Source: Deltaproteobacteria bacterium (lineage in GTDB: Bacteria; Acidobacteriota; Thermoanaerobaculia; Multivoradales; JAHZIX01). From it: a DNA stretch of 64,000 nt. Below the pieces are notes generated by a model that was given only the letters and a program-made list of their open reading frames with translations, was not told the DNA's origin and ran no database searches. A program made the position numbers and the translations under genes. The DNA lies in NCBI GenBank assembly GCA_022601195.1, contig JAHZIX010000006.1:16629-80628 (forward strand), in the 5' to 3' direction. Positions 7,974 to 47,478 of the stretch are shown here, one piece after another (within the stretch, counting starts at the first letter, position 1; each line of letters starts with the position of its first letter).

Positions 7974-8022
7974 CAGAGTTTTTCCTGCCCATCGATGCTC
8001 GAGGCCGTTCTTCCAGCCAGCT

Positions 8023-15616: not shown

Positions 15617-16315
15617 TCAGGACTTGACCGCGCGGCGCAACTGAAAGAGCTGCTCCATGCGCGGAAGATCTTCGGGCTCGTCGATCTGGAACGAATCAAG
15701 GGGGTCCATCCGGTGAACGGCGATTCTACCACCTAGACGGTTGCCATGGCGACGCAGCACCCAGGGCTTGAAGAGATAGATCGAACCGTTTTCTAGTAGA
15801 TCTTCTCCCAGATCCTGGCGGCGTTGACGCCTCTCGAAGTCGTAGCTAACGGAGCTCAGGCCCTGGGCATTCAGGCGCCATACGAATCCGTGAACCGGGC
15901 AAGCGGAAAACAAGCTGTCTGCCCCTTCTCGGTGCAGGGTTTCGATGGCCCGGGCTATGTCTTCCGGTTGGCGCAGAGGGGATGTGGCTTGGAGGAAGAG
16001 GACTAGGTCTGGCACGTATCCCTCCTCCTGTTCCAGGTGATCCAATGCATGGACCAGAGCCGACTCGGAGCTGGCTTCGTCGCCACTGATGTCTACCGGG
16101 CGGTGGACGACTTCAGCACCGTACTCGCTGGCCACTCCGGCGATGACCTGGTCATCCGTGGAGACGACCACCCGGTCCACGGCGGAAGCTTGTCGAGCTT
16201 GCTCGATGCTATGGGCGACCAGAGGTTTTCCCGCTACCAGGTGGACGTTTTTTCCAGGTATTCCTTTGGAGCCCCCCCGGGCAGGGATCAGGGCGAGGAT
16301 GGAAGGTGCGCTCAA
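15617..16315 (-). CDS. CMP-ulosonic acid synthetase (acylneuraminate/KDO cytidylyltransferase family)
   Basis: ALIPARGGSKGIPGKN N-terminal motif, 232 aa. It is separated from the synthase gene by an unusual 235-bp gap. Confidence 0.85.
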   Translation of the reverse strand: MSAPSILALIPARGGSKGIPGKNVHLVAGKPLVAHSIEQARQASAVDRVVVSTDDQVIAGVASEYGAEVVHRPVDISGDEASSESALVHALDHLEQEEGYVPDLVLFLQATSPLRQPEDIARAIETLHREGADSLFSACPVHGFVWRLNAQGLSSVSYDFERRQRRQDLGEDLLENGSIYLFKPWVLRRHGNRLGGRIAVHRMDPLDSFQIDEPEDLPRMEQLFQLRRAVKS

Positions 16316-26971: not shown

Positions 26972-28261
26972 TCAATCACCTCGTCCGTGAGCTTGGTGCC
27001 ACTGATGATGCACCAAAAAGCTGCCATGGCGTTGGCCGATGGGGGCCTGTCCACTGCCGAAGGCATTGCCTTCCACCAGATTGAATTGGAAGGCCTCTTT
27101 GACATTGTCGGAGAACTCTCCATTCACGGAGCAACCTAAAGAGACGGTGTAGACGCCAGCCGCTAGGGGAATCGAAGGCATTTGGCAGTGGATTTTTCCT
27201 TCGGGCGGCAACGTTTCGAATCGTCCGACATCAGTGAAGTGAGTCGATAGAGTAAAGAGTAGATTGCCGATGTGGTCAGCGACGTGTATTTGGGCCAAGA
27301 CTTTGATCAGAGGTTTGCCGTCGGTGGAGCGGTAGCCGATCTCGAAGACACCCGAATCGCCGGAGCGTAGGGAACCGCTTTGGGTACCGTCCGGGTCGGT
27401 CAGTCGAATGCTTTGGAAGCGCATCGGGCCCGCCCCACGGCGATCGGTCCGATCTCCTAGAGGTATTGCTAGCTGAGTGGAGACCTTGGCCATGTATTGG
27501 GTGATGACTTCGTCGGTAGGACCGTAGGCCTCCAAACGGCCCCTTTCCAGCATTAAGGTGGTCGGGCAAAGGTGGGAAATAGCACCTAGATTGTGACTGA
27601 CCAAGAGCACGGTGCGACCTTGTCCAGCCACCTCTCCCATTTTACCCAGGCATTTTTTTTGAAAGGCGGCATCTCCCACTGCCAGCACTTCATCTACCAG
27701 TAGAATCTCCGGTTCCAAATGAGCAGCTACGGCAAATGCTAGCCGTAGGTACATGCCGCTCGAGTAGTGCTTGACCGGAGTGTCGATGAACTTTTCGAGC
27801 TCCGCGAAGTCAACGATCTCCTCGAACTTCTTCAGAATCTCGCCCCGGCCCATGCCGAGGATCGCCCCATTCAGAAAGATATTCTCTCTACCGGTGAGCT
27901 CCGGGTGAAAGCCGGTGCCGACCTCGAGCAGGGAGCCGACTCGGCCTCGGATTCGCGCTAGCCCGGCGGAAGGCTCGGTGATACGTGAGAGAATTTTGAG
28001 CAGTGTGCTCTTGCCTGCTCCATTGCGGCCGATAATACCCACCACCGCCCCTTCCGGAATGGCGAAAGAGATTTCCTGGAGGGCCCAGAAACTTTCGTGG
28101 AGGTCCGCTGCTCCGGTCGCATGACCCTTGAGTAAGTTTCCTACCCGCCGAAACGGGCTCGCTGCTAGCTCGACGAGCGTTTCTCGCAAAGTGCGGTACC
28201 GCTCCTGCTTGCCAATGAAGTAGCGCTTGCCGAGATCTTCCGCGAGGATGGCGTCATTCAT
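26972..28261 (-). CDS. wzt: ABC transporter ATP-binding protein Wzt with C-terminal carbohydrate-binding (Wzt_C-like) domain
   Basis: GRNGAGKSTLLKIL is Walker A, YSSGMYLRLAFAVA is the signature motif and LLVDEVLAVGD is Walker B. A ~165-aa C-terminal extension (FQSIRLTDPDGTQSGSLRSGDSGVFEIGYRS...) follows. The start MNDAIL lies 2 nt after the wzm stop; the ORF track extends spuriously to 28585. Confidence 0.9.
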   Translation of the reverse strand: MNDAILAEDLGKRYFIGKQERYRTLRETLVELAASPFRRVGNLLKGHATGAADLHESFWALQEISFAIPEGAVVGIIGRNGAGKSTLLKILSRITEPSAGLARIRGRVGSLLEVGTGFHPELTGRENIFLNGAILGMGRGEILKKFEEIVDFAELEKFIDTPVKHYSSGMYLRLAFAVAAHLEPEILLVDEVLAVGDAAFQKKCLGKMGEVAGQGRTVLLVSHNLGAISHLCPTTLMLERGRLEAYGPTDEVITQYMAKVSTQLAIPLGDRTDRRGAGPMRFQSIRLTDPDGTQSGSLRSGDSGVFEIGYRSTDGKPLIKVLAQIHVADHIGNLLFTLSTHFTDVGRFETLPPEGKIHCQMPSIPLAAGVYTVSLGCSVNGEFSDNVKEAFQFNLVEGNAFGSGQAPIGQRHGSFLVHHQWHQAHGRGD

Positions 28262-28263
28262 GA

Positions 28264-29160
28264 TTAGACGACATCCGCAAAAGTCTTTTCCATGCGCCGA
28301 AAGTACAGCAAGCCGGTCACCAGGAGCACCAGGGTTGCGATCGAAGAGGTCAGCACCAGACTGAATATCGGGGCGTCGAGTCCGAGCAGAGCCCATCGGA
28401 ATCCCTCGACGACACCGACCATGGGGTTCAATGCATAGATCCACACGGGGATGCCCATCTCCTCGAGCTTGGGCGCGACCTCTGCGGTGGAGTAGATCAC
28501 TGGCGTGACGAAAAGGAGGAGCTGGGTAAAGAAAGGGATGACATAGCGGATATCTCGGAATTGGACGTTCAAGGCAGAAAGCCAAAGGCCTGCCCCGAGT
28601 GCGCTACCGAAGGCCAGGAGAGCCAGGAACGGCAACCAAACAACCATCGCCGTGGGGCGGGTGCCGTAGTAAGCCATCATGGGGAAGAGAATCAGAAACG
28701 CTAGAACGAAATCAACGGCGGGAGCAAGGGCTGAAGCGATCGGGATGGCGAGACGAGGAAAATAAACTTTCTTGATCAGGTTTTGGCTTCCCACCAGGCT
28801 ATTGGACGATTGGGTCAAGCCGAGGGAAAAGAAAGTCCAGGGGAGTAGTCCCGCATAGGAAAAGATGGGGTAGGCGATTCCCTCTGGCCCCAACTGGGCC
28901 ACCCGCCCGAAGAAGATGGTGAACACGACCATGGTCAATAAAGGCTGGAGAATCGCCCAGGAGGCACCAAGGACCGTCTGCTTGTATCGAACCTTGATGT
29001 CCCGCCACACCAAGAAGTAGAGCAGGGCTCGGTAGTCCCACAACTCGCCCAACCGCAAGGAAACCCAGCCGGAAGAGGGCTGGATGAGGGTCTCGGCAAT
29101 GGCCGAGATACGCGGTTGATTATCCATGAGCTGCGGCTTACTTTCGGGAGGCAAAATCAA
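28264..29160 (-). CDS. wzm: ABC-2 type polysaccharide export permease Wzm
   Basis: LWDYRALLYFLVWRDIKVRYKQTVLGASWAILQPLLTMVVF is the canonical Wzm/KpsM/TagG N-terminus. Six TM helices. Confidence 0.85.
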   Translation of the reverse strand: MILPPESKPQLMDNQPRISAIAETLIQPSSGWVSLRLGELWDYRALLYFLVWRDIKVRYKQTVLGASWAILQPLLTMVVFTIFFGRVAQLGPEGIAYPIFSYAGLLPWTFFSLGLTQSSNSLVGSQNLIKKVYFPRLAIPIASALAPAVDFVLAFLILFPMMAYYGTRPTAMVVWLPFLALLAFGSALGAGLWLSALNVQFRDIRYVIPFFTQLLLFVTPVIYSTAEVAPKLEEMGIPVWIYALNPMVGVVEGFRWALLGLDAPIFSLVLTSSIATLVLLVTGLLYFRRMEKTFADVV

Positions 29161-30183: not shown

Positions 30184-31740
30184 CTAGCTACCAGATTCGC
30201 TGAGTATCTTCTCTATATAGTCTTCCACGAACGAAGTTCGTTGCAATTTTGGCAAAGCTCGTTCGAGGGCTCCTTCTGCTGCTACCGGATCGCCGGATTC
30301 GTAGAAAGATATAGCCATAAAGAAAAGCAGGTTTGGACGGTTGTCGCCGGGGTCGCCGCCGCGGCGAAAATAGGTTGCTGACTTCTCCCAAAGAGAGCCT
30401 CGATAGGCAATCTCGGCTACCAAGTGTTGAGCTCTTCGAGATTGAGGAAAAGCGTCGGCTACAGATTGAGCCAGAGTCAAAGCCGGTTCAAGGTCGGCGA
30501 CCTTCTTGGCGTTGGACAAGAGGCTTCGCGCCTCTACCAGGCGGGCCTCATCTTCGGAGCTGAGATTCTTGGGAGCCGGTGAGGTTCGGGGAGCCGGGGG
30601 CGTCAGCTCTGTATTTTGGGATGCTGATGTAGGTCTACGCCCGCCACCCTTTTCCTCAGCAGCTCTTCTCGCAACATCCTCGCCCTCGAGACGAGGATCG
30701 TCCGGGACTCTTTGGGTCGCGACTTGGCTGGCGGCGGGACTTTTCTGGTCCATTGAAGCCGCAGGTGGGTCGAAAGAAGGCAGGTGGTTTTCGTCCCTAG
30801 CTACTGGCTCTGAGGCGAGGTCAGCAAGATCTTCACCGGATGCCTCAAGTTCTTCTTGTCGCTGGGCCTCTTGCCTTTTGAGACCCTTCTCAATGCGCCG
30901 GCCTAGGCGGGTAAACTCTCTTTGAGAGCGCACCGATGGTTCGAGGGCTAAAAGGGTGGCATTCGCCTGTTCCCAGGATTCCATTTCGGTCAGGCAACTG
31001 ACTAGCGGGGAGGCAAACCGGGCCTGGAGCCGTGTCTCGGGACAGATTGTGAGGTCGGTGATGGCTTCGGTGCACCGTTGCATTTCGGCCAGAGTTTGAC
31101 CGCGAAGGCAATGGGCTTGCTCCGACTCTTTGCCTTCAGAGATGAGCTGGTCTAACAAAGGGAGGGCCTCCTGCCTCAGCCCTTCTTCTAGGGTCAGCTT
31201 CGCTAACTGAAGGCGCCACTTCGGTTCTTCCGGTTCGATTTGAGCTCGTTCCGAGAGCGCTTCGCGTCGTTGAGATTTGGGTAGAGCAGCAATGCGTTCG
31301 ACCGCCTTCTCTTTGGCTAGATCCGCAAAGGCAGGAAAGGTCGAGAGCTCCGCTTCTGGGACGAGGTTTCTGACCGTTTCGACGAAGCTACTCTGTAGGG
31401 ATGGAGGGAAAGAATTCTTGGAGTAGGCCTCGAACTGATTTTCGATTTCCATCAGTTTGCGAAATGTGGACCGAAACTCATCCGGATCCCCAGCCCTAGC
31501 ATGGGTCAGAGAAAGTCTGGCCAAACCTTCTGCCAGGAGGTTTGGTTCATCCAAAAATCCGAAATTCGCCAACCGGAGCAGATCTTGAGCTTCTTGGAAG
31601 TCACCACGCTCAGAGGCGGCAATGCCATCTCGTAGGAGGTTTGTGTAGAAGGGGTCTGCTGCTCTCGAGAGGCCAGGAACAGCGAAGCAGAGAAGAAGAA
31701 AGACCAAGAGGAGCTTGCTCAAAGAGGATCGAGAGCCCAT
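30184..31740 (-). CDS. Secreted TPR-repeat protein
   Basis: The probable start is at the signal peptide MGSRSSLSKLLLVFLLLCFAVPGLSRA (Met38 of the ORF). The helical repeat content includes ...DPVAAEGALERALPKLQ.... Confidence 0.5.
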   Translation of the reverse strand: MGSRSSLSKLLLVFLLLCFAVPGLSRAADPFYTNLLRDGIAASERGDFQEAQDLLRLANFGFLDEPNLLAEGLARLSLTHARAGDPDEFRSTFRKLMEIENQFEAYSKNSFPPSLQSSFVETVRNLVPEAELSTFPAFADLAKEKAVERIAALPKSQRREALSERAQIEPEEPKWRLQLAKLTLEEGLRQEALPLLDQLISEGKESEQAHCLRGQTLAEMQRCTEAITDLTICPETRLQARFASPLVSCLTEMESWEQANATLLALEPSVRSQREFTRLGRRIEKGLKRQEAQRQEELEASGEDLADLASEPVARDENHLPSFDPPAASMDQKSPAASQVATQRVPDDPRLEGEDVARRAAEEKGGGRRPTSASQNTELTPPAPRTSPAPKNLSSEDEARLVEARSLLSNAKKVADLEPALTLAQSVADAFPQSRRAQHLVAEIAYRGSLWEKSATYFRRGGDPGDNRPNLLFFMAISFYESGDPVAAEGALERALPKLQRTSFVEDYIEKILSESGS

Positions 31741-32002
31741 TGTGGTGGAAGAACTCCTAGGAAACCTTCCTATCTGGTAGCGCCCACGGCAGGACGACGG
31801 TCGCTTCTTGCAAGGACCGGTCTCTGAATGGGATTCGGGCAACTGAATCATTTATCGACTTTTTCCACTGGGTGGCCTGATATTTCCAAAATCGAAGCTT
31901 CGACCCGTAGAATTTATAGCAAGAGCCGTACCAAGGACTAATTTCTCTGCTCTTCTCAATTTTTTTAATTGGCGGTGTGCCATCTTACTGGCCTCCGCCT
32001 AG

Positions 32003-32725
32003 CTAGGGTATGGGTTGATTGTTCACGACCCTCGTAGGGTTCGTCGTGGTCAACAATGTGGCTACTTCTGGGCTCCAGCGGTCCGCTACATGGTCGTAGG
32101 CTCGCAATAGCCCTGGGGGGCGACGCTCAATTCCGTGGCAGTCGCTGGCGATAAAGTGAGCGAGGGATGTCTCGATGAGCCGCCGGGCCGATTCCCGTGG
32201 ACGACGCCCGAATTCTCCCGTGAGGCTCATCGCAGTAATTTGTAGTCGTGCGCCCAGGTGAACCAGGTTTTCCAATCGGGGTAAATCCCCAGCTAGCCAT
32301 GGCAGCAGCTCCGGGTGCGCAAGAATTGGCCTCCAGCCGCCAACTACCAACTCATGGACGATATGTTCCGGCTCCGGCCCTGTTCCGGACCGCGAAAATT
32401 CGATCAGCAGATATTGGGTGTCTGCGATGGGAAGAAAACCGCCGCCGGGCCAAGATTCGGCTTCTGACAACCATTCCGAATCGACTCGGATCTCTCCGCC
32501 AGGCAACAGAGTGGGACTCTCCCCAATCTCCTCTTGAAGGCGGTTGCGGAGCTCCGTCAAGCTCTGCCGGTCTCCATTCCACCAGCGAGGGTGACGCTGG
32601 TGGGGAGTCGCAACCATAGCGGTACAGCCCTGTTCACCAGCGAAACGAACCATGGCGACGGCTTCTTCGAAGCTATCGGCGCCATCGTCGATCCCGGGGA
32701 GGATGTGGCAATGAAGATCGATCAT
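32003..32725 (-). CDS. PHP-family protein-tyrosine phosphatase (CpsB/YwqE type; Wzb functional analogue)
   Basis: MIDLHCHILPGIDDGA N-terminus and ...IASDCHG... metal-binding residues. 240 aa. Confidence 0.9.
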   Translation of the reverse strand: MIDLHCHILPGIDDGADSFEEAVAMVRFAGEQGCTAMVATPHQRHPRWWNGDRQSLTELRNRLQEEIGESPTLLPGGEIRVDSEWLSEAESWPGGGFLPIADTQYLLIEFSRSGTGPEPEHIVHELVVGGWRPILAHPELLPWLAGDLPRLENLVHLGARLQITAMSLTGEFGRRPRESARRLIETSLAHFIASDCHGIERRPPGLLRAYDHVADRWSPEVATLLTTTNPTRVVNNQPIP

Positions 32726-35016
32726 TAGGCCGCTGAATCGGTGCGCGAGTCAGCCACGTCGTCCACATAGCTTTCGTAATACCGGTGTTTGCGCGCATAG
32801 CTGGCTCGACTGGAGTTGGCCCGGAAGCCATTGAGAACCGCCCCGAGCACTCTAATGTCTGAGAAAAGAAGGCGGTCGCGGCAGGCTCGGGCATCTTCCC
32901 GAACCAAAGAGCCCGCTCGGCAGCACAGCACGACGCCATCGGTCATAGAGCCGATGAGGGTGGAATCAGTCACCGCCAGGGTAGGGGGCGTGTCGACGAT
33001 GACAAAGTCGAACCGTTTGCGGGCTTGGAGGAGAAACTCCCTCATCTTGTCTGAGGACAAGAGCTCCGACGGATTGGGAGGAATGGGGCCGGAAGGGCAG
33101 AGATAGAGATTCTCGACCACCGTGGGGAACAGGATGTCCTCCGGTTCTGCGGTACCGGTCAGATAGCTCACCAAGCCGACTCGATTCGACTGCTTGAGCA
33201 ATTGGTGCTGCCTTGGTTTCCGCAGATCACCATCGATGATCAGAACATTTCGGTCTAGTTGGGACATGACCACGGCGAGGTTGGAGGCGGTGGCGGTCTT
33301 TCCTTCCCCAGCTTCTGCAGAGGTCACGGCGATCATCCGAAGCTCTTCGGCGGTAGAGAGTAGTAGCGCCGTTCGAAGGGATCGATACGCCTCAGACACC
33401 GCCAGACGGGGCTGTTCGTGAGGGAGTAGCTCGATCTTCTGTGGATCGTTCTTGCTCCGTCGTTCTCGCCAACTTTTGGAGGCCTTGGCGGGTGCCGCTC
33501 CGTAGCCATAGGCTTTGGCGCCGCGATAGCCATAGGACCGGCCAGCCTCGAAGATATCGGGTATGACCGCGAGAGTGGGGAGCCCCATGACGCTCTCCAA
33601 CTCTTCACTGGTCTTGATGGTGCGGTCCAGAAGCTCTAGAAGAGCAGCGAGCCCTACGCCGAAGAAGAGTCCCATCGCCATGCCCAGGGTGAGGTTGCGG
33701 CGCAGCGATGGCCGAAAGGGCCCTCCCGGAACCAAGGCTGTATCCACGATCCGAACGTTGGATGCACGGGTGTCTTGCAGTCTCGCAGTAACCGCAGTTT
33801 CCGACTGCCGTTGCAGCAGCTGGTTGAGCAGCTGGCGGCGGGTATTGACTTCGTCTTCGAGATTGATGAACTCGAGTCGGCTCGACTTTTGGTCGAGGGT
33901 TTTGTCCTTGAGGTTGCTGATTTCGGCTTCGAGAGCTCGCTTCTGCCGCTCCGCCGCTTGAAACTCACCCCTTGCAGCTTCTTGAGCCTGAGTCGCGCGG
34001 TCTTGGATCAGCCGGTTCAGGCTCTGACGAGCTTTGTCGATGCGTGCCTTCAGATCTACCATCTCGTGCCATTCGGGTTTGTAGACGGCGAGCTTCGATT
34101 GATAGTCCTGTTCCAGGGTTCGTAGGGCACTGCGCTGCTGCGAGACTTCCGTGCTGGCTACCGATTCAGCGAGAGCCTCAGCGGGGGTCGTCAGAAGCTC
34201 GCGATAGTAGGCTTGCTTTTGGATGTGTAGATTTTGCGCTTCCGAGAAATCCTGATTGAGAGCCTTCAGGCGCTGCAAAGTGGTGTTGGACTCCGGGTCC
34301 AGCGCCACGATGTCACTGCGGCGGCTCACTTCTTGAAGGAGGCCTTCTTTCTCGGCAATTTCTGCCCGAAGCTTCTCGATTTCAGCGCCAAGAAAAGTCG
34401 ATGCCTTGCCGGCGGTGGCGCCTCGGTATTCGATTCCCATGTCGATAAAGGCTTGGGCGAAACCGTTGGCGAGAAGAGCAGCCTTGTGGGCCGAGTCGGC
34501 TGTGTAGATCAGCTCTACTAGTTGGGTCTCTCTAACTCGCCGCACGGTCAGGCCGCCGAGAATTGAGCCGGCCAGTCCTGCTACGGCGGCTTGATCGGCG
34601 GCGGCGGTAGCTTGCTGATCTTGGCCATTGAGGGCGGTGGGAGAGCCCCCGAAAGCCGGATCCGTGGTCAGGCGCAGTTGGCGCACCACCTGTTCCGCGA
34701 GACCCCGGCTCTGAAGGAGCTTCTCTTGGGTCGGGTAGAACTCCATATTCCAGTAGTTTTCTAGCCAGGGGTTCTGGGTGCCGATGAGCGGGGTCAGGGA
34801 ACGCCGCTCAATCTGAACGACAGCTCTTGTTTGAAACTCCTCTGGACTAATCACGAACTTGGCGAAGGCAGCCCCTAGGCAAAGGACGACTGCGACCAGA
34901 ATTAAGCGCCAGTGGCGAAGCAGCTTGAAAAGGTAGTCTTTGACGTCGAACTCCATGTCCGGCGTCTGGGAAAAGCCATCCTGCTCCGTTTGCAGGAACG
35001 AATCGGAGTGACTCAA
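32725..35016 (-). CDS. wzc: Polysaccharide co-polymerase / BY-kinase (Wzc-like tyrosine autokinase)
   Basis: Two TM helices flank a long coiled-coil periplasmic region. Walker A is TSAEAGEGKTATASNLAVVM, followed by LIIDGDLRKP and DFVIVDTPP. The C-terminal Tyr cluster is YARKHRYYESY. Confidence 0.9.
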   Translation of the reverse strand: MSHSDSFLQTEQDGFSQTPDMEFDVKDYLFKLLRHWRLILVAVVLCLGAAFAKFVISPEEFQTRAVVQIERRSLTPLIGTQNPWLENYWNMEFYPTQEKLLQSRGLAEQVVRQLRLTTDPAFGGSPTALNGQDQQATAAADQAAVAGLAGSILGGLTVRRVRETQLVELIYTADSAHKAALLANGFAQAFIDMGIEYRGATAGKASTFLGAEIEKLRAEIAEKEGLLQEVSRRSDIVALDPESNTTLQRLKALNQDFSEAQNLHIQKQAYYRELLTTPAEALAESVASTEVSQQRSALRTLEQDYQSKLAVYKPEWHEMVDLKARIDKARQSLNRLIQDRATQAQEAARGEFQAAERQKRALEAEISNLKDKTLDQKSSRLEFINLEDEVNTRRQLLNQLLQRQSETAVTARLQDTRASNVRIVDTALVPGGPFRPSLRRNLTLGMAMGLFFGVGLAALLELLDRTIKTSEELESVMGLPTLAVIPDIFEAGRSYGYRGAKAYGYGAAPAKASKSWRERRSKNDPQKIELLPHEQPRLAVSEAYRSLRTALLLSTAEELRMIAVTSAEAGEGKTATASNLAVVMSQLDRNVLIIDGDLRKPRQHQLLKQSNRVGLVSYLTGTAEPEDILFPTVVENLYLCPSGPIPPNPSELLSSDKMREFLLQARKRFDFVIVDTPPTLAVTDSTLIGSMTDGVVLCCRAGSLVREDARACRDRLLFSDIRVLGAVLNGFRANSSRASYARKHRYYESYVDDVADSRTDSAA

Positions 35017-35858
35017 AAGAAAGACTCCTTGACCACCACTACGTCACCTTCTCGAAGGCGGAAATCTTCTTCCTTGCCAGCGACGATGCGTTTGTAGTCG
35101 ACGCCGATCTCCTGGCCGGTAGAGTCGTGGGTCTGGCCGGCTCGTTTGACGACGATTTTTGGAGAGGCCCGATCCGTCAACCCGCCAGCTCGAGCGATGG
35201 CTGCGAGAAGGGAGACGCGCTCACTGCTCTTGAAGGTCAGGGCACCTGGTCGTTCAACGGCTCCGAGGCAATACACCGTCACGTCGACCGCAGCGGAGAC
35301 GTTGATGAGGTCGTTGGCGAAGATGGGAATATTGACTTTGGGGTCGGCTCGGACCATGAGGTCGTCTACAGCGATCTCCACTTGGCTCGAGAGCCCGTTC
35401 TCCGCTTGTCGCCGGACATAGATCACGGTGCCATGATTTTCGGCAAGGCCTCCCGCGGCGGTGAGAGCCTCCAGTAGAGTCCAGCGACCGGAAAAGCCTA
35501 GATCTCCCGGTTTAGTGACCGCTCCGATCACCGAAATGGGCTTGGAGCGATATTCACGCAACTGTACGGACACGGAGGCGCGCTGGAAAAAACGTTCTTC
35601 CAACCTCTCCTTCAGTCGTGCTTCCAACTGCGCCGCTGTGAGGCCGAGCACGGAAACATCGCCAACCGGTGGGAAGTTGATGTCTCCGTCGGTAGAAACG
35701 CGGTGCTCACTGTTGAGGTTGGGCGCCTCGAAGACCCGAATCTCGACGAGATCCTTGGGGCCGATTCGATAATTGTCGACATTCTGAGCCGTGGCGTCCG
35801 GGAGGGCCGCTGCTAGAAAGAAGACACAAGAAACCCAGTACAACAGTTTTCTCATCAT
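35013..35858 (-). CDS. wza: Outer-membrane polysaccharide export protein, Wza-like OPX (short form lacking C-terminal OM helix)
   Basis: Signal peptide. Poly_export motif NYRIGPKDLVEIRVFEAPNLNSEHRVSTDGDINFPPVGDVSVLGLTAAQLE. SLBB repeats. At 281 aa it is about 100 aa shorter than E. coli Wza. Confidence 0.85.
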   Translation of the reverse strand: MMRKLLYWVSCVFFLAAALPDATAQNVDNYRIGPKDLVEIRVFEAPNLNSEHRVSTDGDINFPPVGDVSVLGLTAAQLEARLKERLEERFFQRASVSVQLREYRSKPISVIGAVTKPGDLGFSGRWTLLEALTAAGGLAENHGTVIYVRRQAENGLSSQVEIAVDDLMVRADPKVNIPIFANDLINVSAAVDVTVYCLGAVERPGALTFKSSERVSLLAAIARAGGLTDRASPKIVVKRAGQTHDSTGQEIGVDYKRIVAGKEEDFRLREGDVVVVKESFF

Positions 35859-35901
35859 TTTAGAGTAACTCAGTTAGACCTTTGGGGTCTACCGGTTGCA
35901 G

Positions 35902-37191
35902 CTATGGCCAAGAGCTACCTCCGAAGGTCAGGTTTGCCGTCAGGCGGGTGAAGGAACGGTCAAACTCCGCGATGGACGAGTCGAAATCGGTCTCTGCTGC
36001 ACCCAGGCGAAAGGTGGAGTTGGGGCGGAGGCGGAACTCGAGGCGGGCTCCGTATCCCTGATATTCGTCTTTTCGATCAGGCCCCAATAGCTGGGAGGCA
36101 GTGTAGTCGGAGTCGCCAGTTTCCGCGTAGATCTCCAAGCTGGTTCGCCGGCCAAAGCTCATCTTGGCTGCGGCTCCTAGGCGGTCGTCGATGGAATAGA
36201 CGAAACCATCGCCGATGGAGTAGGTGACCGACCGGCGGCCATAGGAGATCAGGGTTAGACGGCTACGGGGCTCGAAACCCACCTGGAAGGAACCGGTCGT
36301 TTCGTCGAGCTCTAGGAACTTGGAACCGGGTTCGCCCTCCAGGTCGCGCTGATTGAGCCGCAGATAAAGTTGGCGGCCGCCTCGATTGAAGTCAACTTCG
36401 AGAAAAGGCGTGGTGCCACTGTTGGAGAGGTCGTTGTCTGGATTTCGAAAGATCGCTTCCGAAACTTCAACGCCGAGTTTGAAAAACCAATCCGACTTGA
36501 GTCTCAGCCGGAAACCGACCTCGAGGAGCTCCTCATCCCGATCCAGGCGGTCGAAGGGAGCCGTTCGCGAGTCCTCAGTTTCTTCCACCAGGTGCCGGTA
36601 GTCGGTTGAATAAAACGATGAGAAGAGCCACATAGAGTTCCTCAAAGCGACTTCGGCTCCGAACCGTAGGTCATCCTCTTTGGTGACGATAGCCTGTTCG
36701 AACTCGGAGGAAACGAACCGTTGATTCTCGTCGGACCGGGCAGAGACCTCTAGCGTCAGGCGATTGAAGTAGGCGAAGATACCGCCACCAAAGCGGTCAT
36801 TGAATCGTCTCCGGTCTTCCAGTTTCTGCCACCAGACATATTGAGGTAGATAATAGGCAACCGCCGTGGTCTTGCCCCCGAGGGGGATGTAGGCTTGTAG
36901 GCCGGCACTGATCGTGGCGGTGAGATCACTGGTCTCGGGCTCGTCGGAGCCGGAGAAAACATCGGTGAGGTAGCTGAGGTTCCTCAAGGAGAGCTCAGGT
37001 TCGACCCGTACGGGGCCAAACTTCCAGCGAGCTTCCTGGGTGTCTTGGGAGATCTTGTCTCGTTGAGAGACCGGGTCCCCACGTAAATCGCCCGGAGGAG
37101 CGTATGTGGAAAGCTGGGCGTCTGCGGAAACACAAAAGCCCACCGCAATGACTAGGCATAATGGTAGGGGTAGGGTGTTAGAAGGTCTCAT
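35902..37191 (-). CDS. Outer-membrane beta-barrel protein (putative partner of the short OPX)
   Basis: Signal peptide MRPSNTLPLPLCLVIAVGFCVSADAQ. Alternating hydrophobic beta-strand pattern throughout. C-terminal ...LTFGGSSWP. The ORF track starts at 37239; the start at Met17 is used here. Confidence 0.5.
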   Translation of the reverse strand: MRPSNTLPLPLCLVIAVGFCVSADAQLSTYAPPGDLRGDPVSQRDKISQDTQEARWKFGPVRVEPELSLRNLSYLTDVFSGSDEPETSDLTATISAGLQAYIPLGGKTTAVAYYLPQYVWWQKLEDRRRFNDRFGGGIFAYFNRLTLEVSARSDENQRFVSSEFEQAIVTKEDDLRFGAEVALRNSMWLFSSFYSTDYRHLVEETEDSRTAPFDRLDRDEELLEVGFRLRLKSDWFFKLGVEVSEAIFRNPDNDLSNSGTTPFLEVDFNRGGRQLYLRLNQRDLEGEPGSKFLELDETTGSFQVGFEPRSRLTLISYGRRSVTYSIGDGFVYSIDDRLGAAAKMSFGRRTSLEIYAETGDSDYTASQLLGPDRKDEYQGYGARLEFRLRPNSTFRLGAAETDFDSSIAEFDRSFTRLTANLTFGGSSWP

Positions 37192-37203
37192 TTCTCCTCC
37201 GAG

Positions 37204-38664
37204 TTGGTGGGCAACGGGGTCGGCGCGATGATAAGGCATTTACCTTTGATCCTCGCGGTCTTCCTTGCTCTTGTCCTTTTCTTGATACCTCTACCGTTCG
37301 GTGGAGTGACTCCTTGGGCGGCGTCCTGGACGCAAATCCTCTGCTTCCTGGGCCTATCTCTGGCTTTGGTCCGGGCTCGTTCTATGGCCTATTTCAAGCC
37401 AGTTCGAGCTCCCGCCTTAGCACTGGGGGCGATCGCTTTGCTGGGTACTTTACAGGCCTTGGCCTGGCCGGCTGGCTTAGTGGGGTGGATTTCCCCCGAG
37501 CATTTGGAAGCCCATCGCGCTACAGCGGAGATGATCGGTAAGGGGAAGGGTGAGGTGATCTCTTCGGGTGCTCCTCATCTCAGTTTGGCGCCGGAGGTGT
37601 CCCGGCGGGTCGCTCTCGGCTGGGCAGCGCTAGCAGCTCTAGTTGCTGTAGCTGGGGTCGTCGGTCGCCATCGCTGGCATCGCCGAGCCTTGGCTGGGGG
37701 CCTTTTGGCGGCCGCTTTCTTCCAAATTTTCTACGGAGCTCGCCGGTGGCTCAGTGGCCTGACCACCATCTGGGGGGTCGAAGTTCCCGGCTCTTCCGAT
37801 CGGCTTCGTGGCACCTTCGTCAATCCCGATCATCTGGCCCTCTTTCTCGAGATTGGGCTGGCTGTCGTGTTCGCCTGGTCTTGGTGGGCGCTGCGACAAT
37901 CTGCCCGGCGCCATCGGTGGGAACGACGACTCCTCTTGGTTGGACCTCCGCTGATCTGCTGGTGCTTTCTCTTCGTGGCCCTCGCCTTTACGGGTTCGCG
38001 AGCCGGGTTGGTTGCGGCGGTGATCGGAGTCGCGGTACAGACTTTCCTCTTGCTGTGGCTAGACGGGCGCCATCGGTGGCGAGCGGTGGGGGTGGGCCTA
38101 GGGGCGGTAGTGATCGGTTTACTTGCTATCGGAGTGACCGGGGCGAGGTTTGGATTCGGCCGCCTCCTTGCCACCTCACCCTACGAGGTCACCTTCGGGG
38201 CACGATTCGAAGCAATACGCAGCAGTCTCACCCTGTGGCAGGAATACCCTTGGCTGGGGACTGGCCTAGGCACCTTTCGAGACGCTTTTCCCGTCGTCCA
38301 ACCTCTGACGATTCGCGGTGGCTCCTGGCGCCATGCCCATAGCGATGTCGTTGAGCTGGGGGTCACCACGGGAGTTCTTGGGTGCCTCCTATTCGCCACC
38401 GGCCTGGCCTTTTTACTGGTTCATCTGGTTCGGGTGCTTCGCTGGGGTTGGTCTTCTGAGGATCGAGCGGCTGGTCTTGCTGCCCTGGGGGCCATCGCTG
38501 CCGTTGGGGCTCACGAGTGGGTCGACTTCGGCTTGACGATGCCGGCCAACTCCCTGGCGTTGGCCGTCGTGTGTGGTGCAGCAGCGGCTGCGCGGCTCGA
38601 CTTGGAAAAGGTCACCTCCCCCGGAGTAAAGAGGACCGGGGCCAAGGACTCCAGCTCGAGGTAG
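37204..38664 (+). CDS. O-antigen ligase / Wzy_C-family membrane protein
   Basis: FTGSRAGLVAAVIG, EYPWLGTGLGTFRDAF and HAHSDVVELGVTTGVLG are Wzy_C hallmarks. The start may be the internal Met9 (37228). It is divergent from the beta-barrel gene. Confidence 0.75.
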   Translation: MVGNGVGAMIRHLPLILAVFLALVLFLIPLPFGGVTPWAASWTQILCFLGLSLALVRARSMAYFKPVRAPALALGAIALLGTLQALAWPAGLVGWISPEHLEAHRATAEMIGKGKGEVISSGAPHLSLAPEVSRRVALGWAALAALVAVAGVVGRHRWHRRALAGGLLAAAFFQIFYGARRWLSGLTTIWGVEVPGSSDRLRGTFVNPDHLALFLEIGLAVVFAWSWWALRQSARRHRWERRLLLVGPPLICWCFLFVALAFTGSRAGLVAAVIGVAVQTFLLLWLDGRHRWRAVGVGLGAVVIGLLAIGVTGARFGFGRLLATSPYEVTFGARFEAIRSSLTLWQEYPWLGTGLGTFRDAFPVVQPLTIRGGSWRHAHSDVVELGVTTGVLGCLLFATGLAFLLVHLVRVLRWGWSSEDRAAGLAALGAIAAVGAHEWVDFGLTMPANSLALAVVCGAAAAARLDLEKVTSPGVKRTGAKDSSSR

Positions 38665-40238
38665 TGCACTTCCCCCGCGGCTGCGGAGATTTCTAAGCTC
38701 ACTAGCCCACCGGGCTGGATTTGGAAAGTTCCAATGGGGGAACCGTCCAGTCGAGCTTCGAGAACGGTTCCTGTTGCATTGACGTGGGTGAATTGGATTT
38801 CCACGCTTTCCTGCTTTTCCCCTGCCAGCCATTCGAGACGATAGGCTCTCTCTTTGCGTTTCCAGGCCTGCGCAGGGAGCCGGTTGCGGGCCATGAGCCG
38901 TAGCCTGTCGTTGGCTAGATCGAGGAGGTCTCGATCGCTGAGAGCCATCGCTAGGTCTCGTCGCACCAGCCAAAATAGAGGGTGGTCTCTCCACACCGGA
39001 TCGACGGAGGCGAGAGAGACTTTCGCAGCAGCGAGGTCTCCTCGTTGCAGGAGAGCGCGGGACAGGGCTATGCGAAAAGCGCTCCATTCCGGCGCGCCAG
39101 GAGGCGCCTGAGAGCGACGCTCGAGGAGCTCAGCCCTGACCAGGTCGTTGGATGCCAAGGCAGCTAGGGCCTGCTCAGGTGGGTCGAGCTCCCCGGAGGC
39201 GAGGGTCAATCGGGCTACTACCTCGGGGTCCAACGGGCTACTTCTGGTCAGGAACAACTCAAAGGTGCGGTCCAGATGGCGGCGCAGACTCCGGGCGTAA
39301 TGGGCGCTATAGGCCCCAGGTGGACAACGGGAGAGGGCTCGATTGATGACTGGATCCATGGCGCTTTCGAGAGGGGCCACGGAAGCGGCGGTGAGGAAAA
39401 GGTGGCGAGCACCGCGCAAGTCGCGTCCGGCAAGGTGGAATTCCGCTTGCTCCATGGAGGTGAAGACTTCGTTCCGTAGCGCGGATTGGAGCAGGTCATA
39501 GGCTTCTCGTACGGCTGGCCAGTCGCTGAGGCCAGCGTACTCACGGATGAGAAATCGCCAAGCATCGGGATCGTCCGGGACCACTGAGAAGGCTTCTTGT
39601 CGATCCTTGGCTCGGCTGAGCCAGGGAGCGATCAAACGGCGAAAATGACGGGTGTCCTCCATGGCTCTTCTCAAAAGGCTCTGGGCTAGTTGCTGTTTCT
39701 CAGCAGAAAGAGCCGGCCAAACCTCGAGATAGGCCGAGGCCAGGAAACGAGTCGGCTCGACTCGACTTGGTGCCAGCTCCAGGCTGCGAAGTAGAGGGTC
39801 TTGCCAGGTTTCCGGCGATCGAAACAGGCGGCCATCTCGTTGCAGCGACCAGTCGAGGTAGGTGGCGGCTCCTAGAATCATCGGAGCTTCCCAATTCGTT
39901 GGCCTCTGCAATTGGACTTTCTGGGCGAGGCTTCTGGCTAGGTCGAGGTGGCGTCCCCTCGGCTTTTGGGAATCCGGTTCCAGCGCAGCGGCAACAATGA
40001 AGCGGGCAACCATCATGCGAGCCCGCTGGGGATCACTCTCCCTTTTGATGCGCAGGAGCAGGCCGGAGCTCGGGTCTAGGTCCAGATGTTCTGCTACCTG
40101 AAGAACCGTGTTTTGGTCTCGCAGAAAGCTCTGATGAGCGCCAAAGGCGGTCAAAGCCAAGAGGAGTGAAGCGGCGGCGAGAGAGAATCTCCAAGTTCGG
40201 TGCCGAAGGCTCAGGGAGGAAGGGTGTATAGAGGCCAT
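38511..40238 (-). CDS. Secreted alpha-helical hypothetical protein (possible alpha/alpha-toroid polysaccharide-processing enzyme)
   Basis: N-terminal signal/anchor LAAASLLLALTAFGA. 575 aa, largely predicted helical, with Arg/Leu/Ala-rich repeats. No catalytic motif recognised. The 3' end overlaps the convergent Wzy_C gene by ~150 nt. Confidence 0.35.
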   Translation of the reverse strand: MASIHPSSLSLRHRTWRFSLAAASLLLALTAFGAHQSFLRDQNTVLQVAEHLDLDPSSGLLLRIKRESDPQRARMMVARFIVAAALEPDSQKPRGRHLDLARSLAQKVQLQRPTNWEAPMILGAATYLDWSLQRDGRLFRSPETWQDPLLRSLELAPSRVEPTRFLASAYLEVWPALSAEKQQLAQSLLRRAMEDTRHFRRLIAPWLSRAKDRQEAFSVVPDDPDAWRFLIREYAGLSDWPAVREAYDLLQSALRNEVFTSMEQAEFHLAGRDLRGARHLFLTAASVAPLESAMDPVINRALSRCPPGAYSAHYARSLRRHLDRTFELFLTRSSPLDPEVVARLTLASGELDPPEQALAALASNDLVRAELLERRSQAPPGAPEWSAFRIALSRALLQRGDLAAAKVSLASVDPVWRDHPLFWLVRRDLAMALSDRDLLDLANDRLRLMARNRLPAQAWKRKERAYRLEWLAGEKQESVEIQFTHVNATGTVLEARLDGSPIGTFQIQPGGLVSLEISAAAGEVHYLELESLAPVLFTPGEVTFSKSSRAAAAAPHTTANARELAGIVKPKSTHS

Positions 40239-40745: not shown

Positions 40746-42170
40746 GTGCCCGAAGGTAGATCCAGTCGAGGGGCCGTCATTTTGTCTCGTTCTAAGACCA
40801 CCAGAAAGAAACGCGGAGCCGGAGGGAAGCTCCTGGGGGCCGGACTGGGGCTGCGGCTGGACCGGGCGGCCGTGGTGCTGGGAGAGACTTTCTTTTGGCT
40901 GTTGTTGATCTCCGTATGGTGGTTTCATGACCCCGAAGCGAAAGACGCCTTCCGTTTGCCAAAACAGGTCTTGAGTCAAGGCCTTGCTCTCGCTTCGATT
41001 TGCGCCCTCTGCTGGCGCCTGCGGGGAGCCTCTCTGGGTCTAGGCCAGATCAAGCGATGCCAGGTAGTGAGAGCTCTGGTGCCTTTACTCCTGGTGGCGA
41101 GCTTGGGACTGGTCTTCTCTCGATATCCCCTTCATTTGCAGGACGCCCTCACCTCACTGGCTATCGGTAGTTTGGCTCTGGTGGTGTGGAGTTGCTGGTT
41201 GCCGGTCGAGACTCTGAACCGCCTGGTTGGTGGGATCGTCGTACCCGGCGTTGCTTCCGCCCTGGTGGGTATTTCCCAGTTCCACGGCATTTGGCGGCCC
41301 TTCGATTTTGCCGGCGAGTTGGAGTCCCAGAGACTTGGTGTCACCTCCTTTGCTGGTAGCGCTGGGGACCTGGCCGTTTTCTTGGTTCTGCCTTGCCTAA
41401 TCGCTCAGCAGCGATGGGTGGTGAGTACGGGGCGTCGACGCTGGGGGTGGGCCGCAGCGCTGGCGATCTGCCTGTACGCCCTGGCGGTAACTCAAACCCT
41501 CTCTGCCCTGGTCGCCTTGATCGTGGGAAGCCTAGTGTTCTGGCTGATTTTCGCCTCCACCAAGCGGGTTCTGGCAGTGGCTACCGGCCTAGGTCTTGCG
41601 GCTAGCTTGTTGATCCTCGTTTTGGCTCCACTGAGGGCGCGAGTGGTCTCTAAGGTTCAGTACCTGGCGAAGGGAAAAATCGATGAGGTTCTGACCGGCC
41701 GTCTCGACGGCTGGAAGGGAGCCTGGTGGATGTTGTCAGAGAATCCTCTCACTGGCGTCGGGTTGGGGGGCTATCGGGCGGAGTTCGCGACGGCCAAGAT
41801 GGCCCTTGTCGACCAGGGAGTTGAATTTTTCCGCGGCCAGCACCAGGTCATGTTTGTGAACGCCCACAACGAGTTTCTGGAGGTTGCTGCAGAACTGGGA
41901 TGGCCGGGCTTGGTGGCCCTTGCCTGGGCTCTCTGGGTTCTGTTTCAAGTGCTGAGAAATCGCACCTCCCGAATCCAAGGAAAAGACGCACCGGCCCTGG
42001 AGCTACAGCCGAGATCGCGGGCGGATTCTGCTCTCGCTTGGTCTGGAGTGACCGGTTTGGCGGTTTGCTCTCTGGCCCAATTTCCCTTTCGCCTGGCCAT
42101 GGTGGCGTTTCCGGCTATCCTGTTTCTGGCCTGGGTGTTTGCTCGCCAAAGCTCGGAGGAACCATCTTGA
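40746..42170 (+). CDS. O-antigen ligase / Wzy_C-family membrane protein
   Basis: TGRLDGWKGAWWMLSENPLTGVGLGGY and VNAHNEFLEVAAELGWPGLVA (H-N-x-x-L-E) are Wzy_C motifs. About 12 TM helices. Confidence 0.7.
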   Translation: MPEGRSSRGAVILSRSKTTRKKRGAGGKLLGAGLGLRLDRAAVVLGETFFWLLLISVWWFHDPEAKDAFRLPKQVLSQGLALASICALCWRLRGASLGLGQIKRCQVVRALVPLLLVASLGLVFSRYPLHLQDALTSLAIGSLALVVWSCWLPVETLNRLVGGIVVPGVASALVGISQFHGIWRPFDFAGELESQRLGVTSFAGSAGDLAVFLVLPCLIAQQRWVVSTGRRRWGWAAALAICLYALAVTQTLSALVALIVGSLVFWLIFASTKRVLAVATGLGLAASLLILVLAPLRARVVSKVQYLAKGKIDEVLTGRLDGWKGAWWMLSENPLTGVGLGGYRAEFATAKMALVDQGVEFFRGQHQVMFVNAHNEFLEVAAELGWPGLVALAWALWVLFQVLRNRTSRIQGKDAPALELQPRSRADSALAWSGVTGLAVCSLAQFPFRLAMVAFPAILFLAWVFARQSSEEPS

Positions 42171-45758: not shown

Positions 45759-47159
45759 TTAGGTGCCGCGAAGGGTGAGGACGATCTTGACCGTGCGTAG
45801 CAGGATGGAAAGGTCGAGCCAGAGGCTCCAATTGGCCAGGTAGGCGAGGTCGAAGCGGAGCTTGTTTTCGGCTGTGGAGTGGTATTCACCGCTGATCTGG
45901 GCCAGCCCCGTCAGGCCCGGAGGCAGCGAAAATCGCTCCGAATAGCCGGGAATTTCATCCAGAAAGCGCTCAACGAAAACTGGGCGTTCAGGCCGAGGAC
46001 CCACCAGGCTCATCTCCCCCTTGAGGACATTGAAAAGCTGGGGCAGCTCGTCGATACGAAAGCGTCGCAGCATCCCTCCCACCGGGGTCAGTCGGGGATC
46101 GTTGGGTTCCGCCAAGACTTCTCCCGTGTGGCGCTCGGCATCCTGCTGCATGGTGCGGAGCTTCCAAAGCTCAAAGGGTTTGCGTCCTGCGCCCAGCCGT
46201 TCTTGGCGAAAGAAGGCCGGCCCGGGAGAGGTGAGTCGGATCACCAGGGCACAGAGGGCGATCAACGGGAGGGTGCCGAGTAGCAGCAGGGACCCGCCGA
46301 CCAGGTCGACGGTGCGCTTGACGGGCCGATTGACTCGCCACTCGCTCTGGCGAACGACCTCGATGAGGGGAAGATCCCGCACCCAGCGGTATCGCATACG
46401 TCCAATGAGGCTCTCGAAGGGTCCGGGCAGCAAGAGGACGCTACCTCGCGTCCGTCCGGTCGCTGTCAGTCCATCCATGAGCCGTGTCTGCCAGCCGTAG
46501 CTATTGGCAGCGAGAATCAGATCATCTATCTGCCCCGCTTGGAGGAGAGCCGGAAGGTCCTCCACCGATCCCAAGCAAGGTCCCAGATCGGCATCCTTGG
46601 GTTGCGGCGTTTCCGCCTCGTCCGGCGCCGGGACGAATCCTGCTACTTCCAGCTCATGCCAGCCGTGGTCGCGGATGGTCCGGGCGAGAGACCGGGCGGC
46701 CGACCCACAACCGACGATGGCGACCCGTCGTGCTTCCTGATGGCGAAGGCGGAGGGCCCAGTGTCGCCACCCTAGAAGCATCAGGTAGTTGAACAGGGCG
46801 AAGAGGAGGAGGATGGATCGGGGAAAAGTACCGTTGGTGAGAAAAAAATATCCCATCAGCAGGAGACCTTGGAGGATGACTGCGGTGCCCAGTCGCCGGG
46901 ACAGATCCCCTCGGGTACCGGGATCCGGAGGGTCATAGAAGCCGAAGAAATAGAGGACCAAGGGTTGCGAAACGGCTACAACCCACCATTCCGTAGCGAA
47001 AAAAGACAGCCGATCGGGAGGCAAGAGACTGAGAGTGAAGGGTAAAGGCAGATGGATGCGGGTCTGGAAAGCGAAGAGGAAGGCGGCCAAGCCAGCTGTC
47101 AGGTCGGCTGCCGCCAACAGCCATCTCCAGCCGCGGTGGTGGGAGGTCATGGGTTTCAT
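45759..47159 (-). CDS. Initiating polyprenyl-phosphate hexose-1-phosphate transferase (WbaP/CpsE/EpsZ family, Bac_transf)
   Basis: N-terminal TM bundle. C-terminal PFELWKLRTMQQDAE...IDELPQLFNVLKGEMSLVGPRP. The start is taken at MKPMTSHH; the ORF extends to 47255. Confidence 0.85.
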   Translation of the reverse strand: MKPMTSHHRGWRWLLAAADLTAGLAAFLFAFQTRIHLPLPFTLSLLPPDRLSFFATEWWVVAVSQPLVLYFFGFYDPPDPGTRGDLSRRLGTAVILQGLLLMGYFFLTNGTFPRSILLLFALFNYLMLLGWRHWALRLRHQEARRVAIVGCGSAARSLARTIRDHGWHELEVAGFVPAPDEAETPQPKDADLGPCLGSVEDLPALLQAGQIDDLILAANSYGWQTRLMDGLTATGRTRGSVLLLPGPFESLIGRMRYRWVRDLPLIEVVRQSEWRVNRPVKRTVDLVGGSLLLLGTLPLIALCALVIRLTSPGPAFFRQERLGAGRKPFELWKLRTMQQDAERHTGEVLAEPNDPRLTPVGGMLRRFRIDELPQLFNVLKGEMSLVGPRPERPVFVERFLDEIPGYSERFSLPPGLTGLAQISGEYHSTAENKLRFDLAYLANWSLWLDLSILLRTVKIVLTLRGT

Positions 47160-47478
47160 GTATCCAGGATTATGTACCAGGAGCCTGTAGTGAAAGTCTC
47201 TTGTTTGCGAGAGCGAGCGATCTTTCGGTGAATCCAGAAGGCAAACCGGAGCCAAACCTGGGGTTCGTCGAGGACCTCGCTGCGCCGGGTCGCGGAGTCG
47301 CTGGAAGAGACCCGCTCGCCGCCAGAGAGAGTCGCACTACAGGCTCCTTGGCCAGGGTTTCCTGCTCGATCGTTCGCCGATGTTCGGCTCCAGAATACTC
47401 CCCTCCGCTACGGGACCTGGGCGGTGAGGGGAATTCCGTTGAGGCTCGCAGACTCTATGTGTAGATTCGGCTATACTC

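Follow-up and report, generated by a model that had tools for sequence, protein, structure and literature searches.

The window analysed here, a stretch of 64,000 nucleotides from an acidobacterial assembly (GCA_022601195.1; lineage Acidobacteriota, of the kind represented by Thermoanaerobaculia/Holophagae-type metagenome-assembled genomes), encodes side by side a protein of the OPX (outer-membrane polysaccharide export) type that lacks the C-terminal helix of Escherichia coli Wza and an 18-stranded outer-membrane beta-barrel. The two very probably constitute a composite export translocon in which the barrel supplies the outer-membrane pore. We favor this reading because the OPX protein lacks the helix and, as aligned, the gating loop, a barrel with a signal peptide is encoded in the same operon, the pair is syntenic in related genomes, and the next gene, which overlaps that of the OPX protein, encodes a polysaccharide co-polymerase (PCP) of type 2a. 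Coordinates are those of the whole stretch, and the library scans covered open reading frames (ORFs) of the window.

The barrel, OPX and PCP-2a genes form a tight string on the minus strand. Read along that strand, the barrel gene comes first, upstream of the OPX gene and with 43 bp between them, while the stop codon of the OPX gene and the start of the PCP-2a gene, a TTG, overlap by 4 bp. The initial annotation had called the barrel the next gene after the OPX gene, which is so only in plus-strand coordinates; its signal peptide and barrel nature stand. The features concerned are:

35902..37191, minus strand: 18-stranded outer-membrane beta-barrel, 429 aa (AlphaFold2, fold matches in the PDB, deposited protein P0001)
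37117..37191, minus strand: type I signal peptide of the barrel, MRPSNTLPLPLCLVIAVGFCVSADA followed by QL (read from sequence; residues 1-23 have pLDDT < 50)
35013..35858, minus strand: Class-3 (D1D2D2) OPX protein, 281 aa (Pfam, AlphaFold2, Foldseek, phmmer)
35016..35024, minus strand: Ser-Phe-Phe tail codons of the OPX protein, a putative porin-docking motif (alignment to WzaB)
32725..35016, minus strand: PCP-2a co-polymerase with bacterial tyrosine (BY) kinase domain, Wzc-like, 763 aa (Pfam Wzz, GNVR and AAA_31)

The OPX protein and its C-terminal tail

That the 281-residue protein has Poly_export and SLBB regions, as initially annotated, is confirmed by Pfam, which places Poly_export at residues 25-100 (E 7.8e-23) and finds two SLBB stretches (SLBB_2, E 1.4e-14, and SLBB, E 1.1e-13). 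Neither Wza_C nor GfcC matches it at E <= 0.01. With 107 homologues as input, AlphaFold2 gives a model (pLDDT 88.5) of three domains, D1 and then two beta-grasp domains. Its last secondary-structure element is a strand at residues 273-278, after which come only S279-F280-F281, and the last 20 residues contain no helix, so the absence of a C-terminal amphipathic helix, also part of the first description, is upheld. Foldseek aligns the model with E. coli Wza over some 270-290 columns (E ~1e-17, 25% identity), compatible with coverage of Wza D1-D3, and also with the Myxococcus xanthus WzaB structure 9N9A. The latter (sWzaB) is the best match by sequence among solved structures (phmmer E 5e-23). 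In NCBIfam the protein scores 127 bits with pepcterm_export, 124 bits with EpsE, whose 239-position model it spans end to end, and 107 bits with EpsY, all three below cut-off.

When the protein is aligned with Wza by phmmer, gaps of 3 and 8 residues (11 in total) stand opposite 'pag' and 'sssdtgnw' of Wza, between Poly_export strands. We read these gaps as falling at the site of the tyrosine-ring gating loop (beta1-beta2), which would accordingly be truncated in the window protein; absence of this loop is a reported hallmark of Class-3 OPX proteins. Export of the protein is specified by a signal peptide of the signal peptidase I (SPI) type, MMRKLLYWVSCVFFLAAALPDATA followed by QN (the cleavage context being LPDATA before QN), and the mature product has about 257 residues. 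There is no lipobox cysteine in it or in its homologues, and the homologues have no cysteine near the cleavage site. Lipidation by way of Cys11 was considered and rejected, as there is no lipobox, the hydrophobic stretch that precedes it is too short and the cysteine is absent from homologues. The protein is a Class-3 OPX in the scheme of Saidi et al. (2022, PMC9603273) and a D1D2D2-OPX in that of Schwabe et al. (2022, mBio, PMC9601211), though its 281-residue precursor is one residue over the empirical cut-off of <= 280 aa used by the latter.

The last residues of the protein can be aligned by phmmer with those of WzaB residue for residue, ...GDVVVVKESFF in the window and ...GDIVFVPESFF in M. 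xanthus. Deletion of Ser202-Phe203-Phe204 from WzaB abolishes binding to the porin WzpB, for which the wild-type Kd is 9.5 uM, and also abolishes secretion in vivo (Mellouk et al. 2026, PMC12819527). The chain terminates in Ser-Phe-Phe in 117 of 120 proteins closely homologous to the window OPX, and of the 67 OPX ORFs detected in the related loci described below, 63 end in [FL][FL]; divergent ones, with 33-40% identity, end in EWFF, EWLF or EHFF. At the level of sequence this tail is the strongest evidence that the OPX protein is built for contact with an outer-membrane partner. Judged in the same way, conservation of the predicted docking tail holds across phyla, and it does so with an OPX protein that has three domains and is non-lipidated and with a barrel that has no sequence similarity to the porin on which docking was tested.

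At the other end of the molecule the correspondence with WzaB is less complete. Arg106-Arg107 of WzaB, in the D1 apical loop that contacts the PCP, aligns with Gln92-Arg93 of the window OPX (35582-35587), so that one arginine is kept, and Gln92 is invariant across 107 family members. With an invariant glutamine in place of WzaB Arg106, the alignment suggests that the contact between OPX and PCP may differ from that made by WzaB.

The barrel and its neighbors in related genomes

The longest ORF for the barrel, 35902-37239, would give 445 aa, and it was to 37239 that the gene had first been drawn. The start is most likely 16 codons further in, at the ATG at 37191, since this ATG is preceded by GGAGGAG, initiation there results in a signal peptide, and the 429-aa product has the same length as the NCBI-deposited protein P0001 (100% identity, labelled 'hypothetical protein'). 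The start at 37239 was rejected on the grounds of the GGAGGAG and the deposited length. Homologues have the same A-x-A cleavage context before Q, followed by a conserved QYTxPG segment.

An AlphaFold2 model from an alignment of 93 sequences (A1) has a pLDDT of 91.0 and a pTM of 0.87, and DSSP counts 18 strands in it between residues 56 and 423. Turns of 2-4 residues join the strands on one side, the periplasmic one, and loops of 5-17 residues on the other, the extracellular one, and a short helix (residues 43-52) lies in the periplasmic N-terminal segment. The protein is thus predicted to be a barrel and not a soluble periplasmic protein. Its best folds in the PDB are the 18-stranded Occ/OprD channels OccAB3, OccK and OprD (E 4e-8 to 1e-6, TM score ~0.5), with 9-13% identity and a root-mean-square deviation (rmsd) of 6-7 A.

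By sequence there is no significant match in Pfam, NCBIfam or the PDB, either for the single protein or for the 93-sequence profile. Member by member, 31 of the 93 family sequences match Pfam PF10082 BBP2_2 (best E 9e-9), 46 match NCBIfam TIGR03014 EpsL (best E 8.9e-10), a model named 'XrtB/PEP-CTERM-associated polysaccharide biosynthesis outer membrane protein', and 15 match the PEP-CTERM-associated outer-membrane protein model TIGR03016. On BBP2_2 the barrel of the window reaches 13.2 bits, below the cut-off of 23.7. The scores point to a distant, sub-threshold relatedness, and to that only, with EpsL/BBP2_2 proteins as the nearest annotated relatives of the barrel. The family is sizeable: when clustered at 50% identity it comprises 498 representative clusters if the limit is set at E <= 1e-30, and 1,448 if it is relaxed to E <= 1e-10.

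Several short motifs are conserved in the barrel family: (A)QFxQYTxPG at the mature N-terminus (residues 26-34, and the window region 37117-37130), LPEYVWW in strand 3 (residues 114-121), LDRDE at loop 4/strand 8 (residues 216-220) and RSNSGT at loop 5/strand 10 (residues 256-260). The last three sit in loops or at the extracellular ends of strands, which is unusual, as the loops of outer-membrane barrels are normally variable. Their position hints that they may be lumen-lining or gating elements.

Related genomes were scanned with one genome per GTDB species; this gave 105 barrel relatives, the best 80 loci of which were used. All 80 are from metagenome-assembled genomes labelled Acidobacteriota, Thermoanaerobaculia, Holophagales/Holophagae, Terriglobia or 'Multivoradales', with a few labelled just 'bacterium'. 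The 76 loci with at least 1.3 kb downstream of the barrel were taken as informative for pairing, and in 65 of them barrel and OPX genes occur together. The positions of the OPX gene relative to that of the barrel in the 76 loci are:

directly downstream on the same strand: 62
directly upstream: 2
2.1 kb away: 1
none in the flank: 11

The pairing is far beyond chance, and the co-occurrence expected on the initial annotation is borne out. Compared with the window proteins, the OPX proteins are much more conserved (median identity 61%) than the barrels (31-40%). The usual block comprises genes for a 575-aa protein, a Wzy_C protein (divergent), the barrel, the OPX protein, the PCP-2a kinase, a CpsB phosphatase and a tetratricopeptide-repeat (TPR) protein. 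The members that flank the three core genes in the window are:

38511..40238, minus strand: 575-aa conserved protein (tblastn match in most related loci, 29-42% identity)
37204..38664, plus strand: Wzy_C (O-antigen ligase/polymerase-like) membrane protein, divergent from the barrel gene (Pfam Wzy_C E 4e-17)
32003..32725, minus strand: CpsB/CapC-type PHP tyrosine phosphatase, partner of the BY-kinase (Pfam CpsB_CapC E 1.4e-48; synteny in most related loci)
30184..31851, minus strand: TPR-repeat protein, weakly PrsT-like (Pfam TPR families; TIGR02917 PrsT E 1.3e-5; syntenic in most related loci)

The Wzy_C gene is divergently adjacent to the barrel gene in 52 of 60 loci informative on this point. 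In the window the likely start codons of the two, in the region 37191-37228, are at most about 36 bp apart, and their promoters must therefore sit within each other's coding sequence. The Wzy_C ORF and that of the 575-aa protein are convergent, and their 3' ends share 154 nt (38511-38664). The 575-aa protein has no match in Pfam or NCBIfam and is apparently an unannotated but integral member of a module with Wzy_C and the barrel.

A proposed export route, its alternatives and the wider locus

On the composite-translocon reading, a polymer would be assembled at the inner membrane, with cycling between the BY-kinase and the CpsB phosphatase perhaps regulating assembly and polymerization. The OPX protein, exported by Sec, would remain in the periplasm and, by analogy with Wza and WzaB, assemble, probably as an octamer, into a ring with its three domains (D1-D2-D2) stacked. 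Such a ring would be an ungated conduit of roughly the height of Wza D1-D3. Its base would touch the Wzc-like PCP-2a at the periplasmic domain of that protein, which would hand the chain to the ring, and at the top of the ring the Ser-Phe-Phe tails would dock on the rim that the 18-stranded barrel turns to the periplasm. The polymer would then pass through the barrel, which as the outer-membrane pore would replace what Wza builds from its D4 helices.

The properties of the PCP-2a are in keeping with its place in such a scheme. In addition to its Pfam domains it matches TIGR01007 above cut-off (173 bits) and, less well, Wzc/Etk models, and it has hydrophobic segments near residues 29-59 and 441-464, a Walker A motif (GEGKT) at 570 and a tyrosine-rich C-terminal tail. 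Its periplasmic region is of Wzc size and not extended, which fits a three-domain OPX of Wza-like height; extended PCPs have been proposed for two-domain OPX proteins (Schwabe et al., PMC9601211).

Several results weigh against this reading or against its closeness to the myxobacterial systems. In 11 of the 76 loci the barrel, Wzy_C and 575-aa genes are kept and no OPX gene is present within up to 8 kb, as confirmed by a search of six-frame ORFs with an OPX hidden Markov model (HMM); adjacency of an OPX gene is therefore not obligatory for the barrel. These loci (L004, L006, L007, L010, L011, L013, L014, L037, L051, L058 and L064, the barrel being at ~8001-9250 in most) are mostly within two barrel sub-clades, and two of the genomes (those with L058 and L045, and with L064 and L020) have, besides the OPX-less locus, another barrel locus, whose OPX is divergent. 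AlgE and PgaA, taken as the solved folds nearest to barrels of the EpsX/ExoB/WzpB family, and BcsC are absent from the top 50 fold matches of the window barrel, where the small-molecule channels of the Occ/OprD type lead. The OPX protein is non-lipidated, unlike EpsY, ExoA and WzaB, and so lacks the type II signal peptide that is a criterion for proteins of that kind. Sequence similarity of the barrel to WzpB could not be detected. For this comparison WzaB was reconstructed from the 9N9A alignment and led to three myxobacterial wzpB-wzaB loci, with MXAN_1916 (421 aa) as WzpB. BLASTP of the window barrel against WzpB gave E 0.39, the barrel-family HMM scored -1 to -2 bits on the three WzpB orthologues, a WzpB HMM, shallow in being built from three sequences, reached at most 3.6 bits on the barrel family, and hhalign of the barrel family with the three-sequence WzpB profile returned a probability of 2-3%. 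A probability of 99 from hhalign with '-M 50' was rejected as an artefact, the same score being obtained from a one-column alignment. WzpB has no match to the BBP2_2 or EpsL models.

The genes further along the window add a last point on the same side. They include:

26972-29160, minus strand: Wzm/Wzt ABC exporter, Wzt with a Wzt_C carbohydrate-binding domain, part of the gene string on this strand that also holds the PCP-2a kinase and CpsB genes (32003-35016)
475-1980, 37204-38664 and 40746-42170: three Wzy_C proteins
45759-47255: Bac_transf phosphoglycosyl transferase

With a Wzm/Wzt exporter and three Wzy_C proteins, it is ambiguous which polymer is exported via OPX and barrel and by which pathway it is made. 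No Wzx flippase was recognized among the window ORFs scanned. The window also encodes many glycosyltransferases and methyltransferases. Weak matches to PEP-CTERM-system models are given by the OPX protein, the PCP, the phosphoglycosyl transferase, one Wzy_C protein and the TPR protein, and no exosortase was found among the ORFs scanned.

Of the alternatives, one would make the barrel an accessory outer-membrane protein, for instance an anchor or lectin like Wzi or a partner of the Wzy_C and 575-aa proteins, with the polymer leaving by another route. The linkage of the Wzy_C and 575-aa genes to the barrel is about as tight as that of the OPX gene, the OPX-less loci hold precisely this trio, and Wzi is itself an 18-stranded barrel in Wzy-dependent capsule loci that is dispensable for export. 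Yet neither the barrel nor any of its 93 family members matches the Wzi family in Pfam, Wzi is outside the top 50 folds, and the conserved Ser-Phe-Phe tail is a porin-binding element in the system where it was tested. Furthermore, the OPX protein cannot cross the outer membrane, and no gene for another outer-membrane channel was found among the window ORFs scanned. An accessory role is on balance improbable.

Less probable again, and by our estimate very unlikely, is an OPX protein that works without any outer-membrane pore, as a periplasmic adaptor for the PCP only, with a product that is cell-associated or periplasmic. An adaptor role of this kind has been proposed for the Class-3 OPX proteins of monoderm bacteria, and the presence of Class-3 OPX in ~7% of Gram-positive genomes does point to a conserved periplasmic function, with which a soluble OPX protein that carries an SPI signal and lacks a lipid anchor agrees. 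The host here is a diderm acidobacterium, however, with a dedicated outer-membrane barrel gene in the same operon, and the conserved tail implies a partner on the outer-membrane side. A third alternative sees in the barrel a porin for small molecules, general or substrate-specific and of the Occ/OprD type, that just happens to adjoin export genes. It too is very unlikely: its fold likeness to OccAB3, OccK and OprD is, at such identity and rmsd, the generic likeness of any two 18-stranded barrels, the synteny with export genes is kept across dozens of divergent genomes with barrel identity down to ~31%, and the family weakly matches EpsL and PEP-CTERM polysaccharide outer-membrane models and not porin models.

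If the composite translocon is accepted, the origin of its barrel is a separate matter. It is conceivable, though we would incline against it, that the acidobacterial barrel is a lineage evolutionarily separate from EpsX/ExoB/WzpB, EpsL/BBP2_2-like, and yet docked by the same E-S-F-F tail of the OPX protein. Were this so, the di-phenylalanine tail would be a near-universal adaptor through which OPX rings that lack the helix connect to 18-stranded barrels unrelated to each other, and outer-membrane attachment in this family would need no lipid anchor; the periplasmic N-terminal QYTxPG segment of the barrel might then help in the attachment.

Three other groups of genes in the window merit mention. 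The gene at 13492-15381 on the minus strand encodes a nonulosonic acid synthase of the NeuB family joined in one protein with a xylose-isomerase-like TIM-barrel domain (AP_endonuc_2); it is adjoined by a CMP-sugar cytidylyltransferase gene (15617-16315, minus strand), which suggests that the polymer contains a sialic-acid-like sugar. Where the locus has its edge, an MBOAT protein gene is followed by one for an AlgX-like SGNH protein (52030-54646, plus strand), a pair for polysaccharide O-acetylation in the style of AlgI/AlgX. Two tandem paralogues, 59186-60478 and 60777-62015, both on the plus strand, have an N-terminal PilZ domain and a C-terminal NTF2-like Cds6_C domain; they lie near the polysaccharide locus and may respond to c-di-GMP.

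Comparison with known systems

Literature searches on PF10082, on EpsL together with exosortase, on the VpsM family and on exopolysaccharide export in Thermoanaerobaculia returned nothing useful. Close in general design is the composite OPX/beta-barrel translocon defined by Schwabe et al. (2022, PMC9601211), with VpsN/VpsM of Vibrio cholerae as an example; composite translocons were found across 10 phyla, and the couple of D1D2D2-OPX and barrel is a widespread variant. The D1D2D2 OPX proteins (about 250-280 aa) share with that of the window a PES/Poly_export D1, a pair of beta-grasp domains and the absence of a C-terminal helix. The arrangement is defined by a barrel of 16 or more strands, encoded no further than five genes from the OPX protein, and by an adjacent PCP, and the window has all of these, with 18 strands in a barrel whose gene adjoins that of the OPX protein. 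Class-3 OPX proteins, described as part of an OPX/porin system by Saidi et al. (2022, PMC9603273), have been catalogued in 13 of 14 Acidobacteria genomes.

In exopolysaccharide loci of the EpsE/EpsL and PEP-CTERM (XrtA/XrtB) type (TIGR03028, TIGR03027, TIGR03014, TIGR03016, PF10082) the likeness is spread over both partners: the window OPX spans the EpsE model and half of the barrel family is weakly EpsL-like (best E 9e-10), with all scores below the curated cut-offs.

With WzaB/WzpB/WzcB of M. xanthus the resemblance is one of plan. The order, barrel and then OPX gene, is the same, with a wzpB-wzaB gap of 23 bp as against 43 bp in the window. D1 and the terminal SLBB of the two OPX proteins are homologous (E 5e-23), their ESFF ends are identical and the tyrosine-ring loop is lacking from WzaB and, as aligned, from the window protein. 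WzpB and the window barrel are both 18-stranded with an SPI signal peptide, and WzcB and the window PCP are both of type 2a with a tyrosine kinase domain. WzaB, though, is a lipoprotein of two domains (D1D2, 204 aa), and its lipidation is essential, being needed for it to oligomerize and to function, whereas the OPX of the window is a three-domain protein with an SPI signal. The window barrel is WzpB-like in architecture and context and is not a demonstrable member of the WzpB sequence family. Of the initial proposal of a bipartite 'secretin' of the myxobacterial type, the two-part design is supported by architecture, synteny and the Ser-Phe-Phe tail, and the shared architecture justifies the comparison; the three-domain non-lipidated OPX and the lack of a WzpB sequence homologue set it apart, and 'translocon' is the proper term.

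Composite translocons, including those with D1D2D2 OPX proteins, have been known since 2022 and the docking mechanism since 2026, and the current picture of polysaccharide export is unchanged by the present case. What is added is an OPX protein without lipidation, a family of acidobacterial barrels that is unannotated and has no detectable similarity to the tested porin, and an ESFF tail that crosses phyla. This extends the combination of Class-3 OPX, porin and Ser-Phe-Phe docking to uncultured Acidobacteriota of the Thermoanaerobaculia/Holophagae type that are abundant in soil and sea, and gives a probable function to a 'hypothetical' protein family of about 500 clusters at E <= 1e-30, or about 1,450 at E <= 1e-10. 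In relation to E. coli Wza, the Class-1 OPX (PDB 2J58), D1 and two beta-grasp domains are shared, and so is a Wzc-type PCP-2a as partner; being without the D4 amphipathic helix, the lipid anchor and, by our alignment, the tyrosine-ring loop of Wza, the window OPX needs a separate outer-membrane pore, and the barrel encoded 43 bp upstream of it is the probable one.

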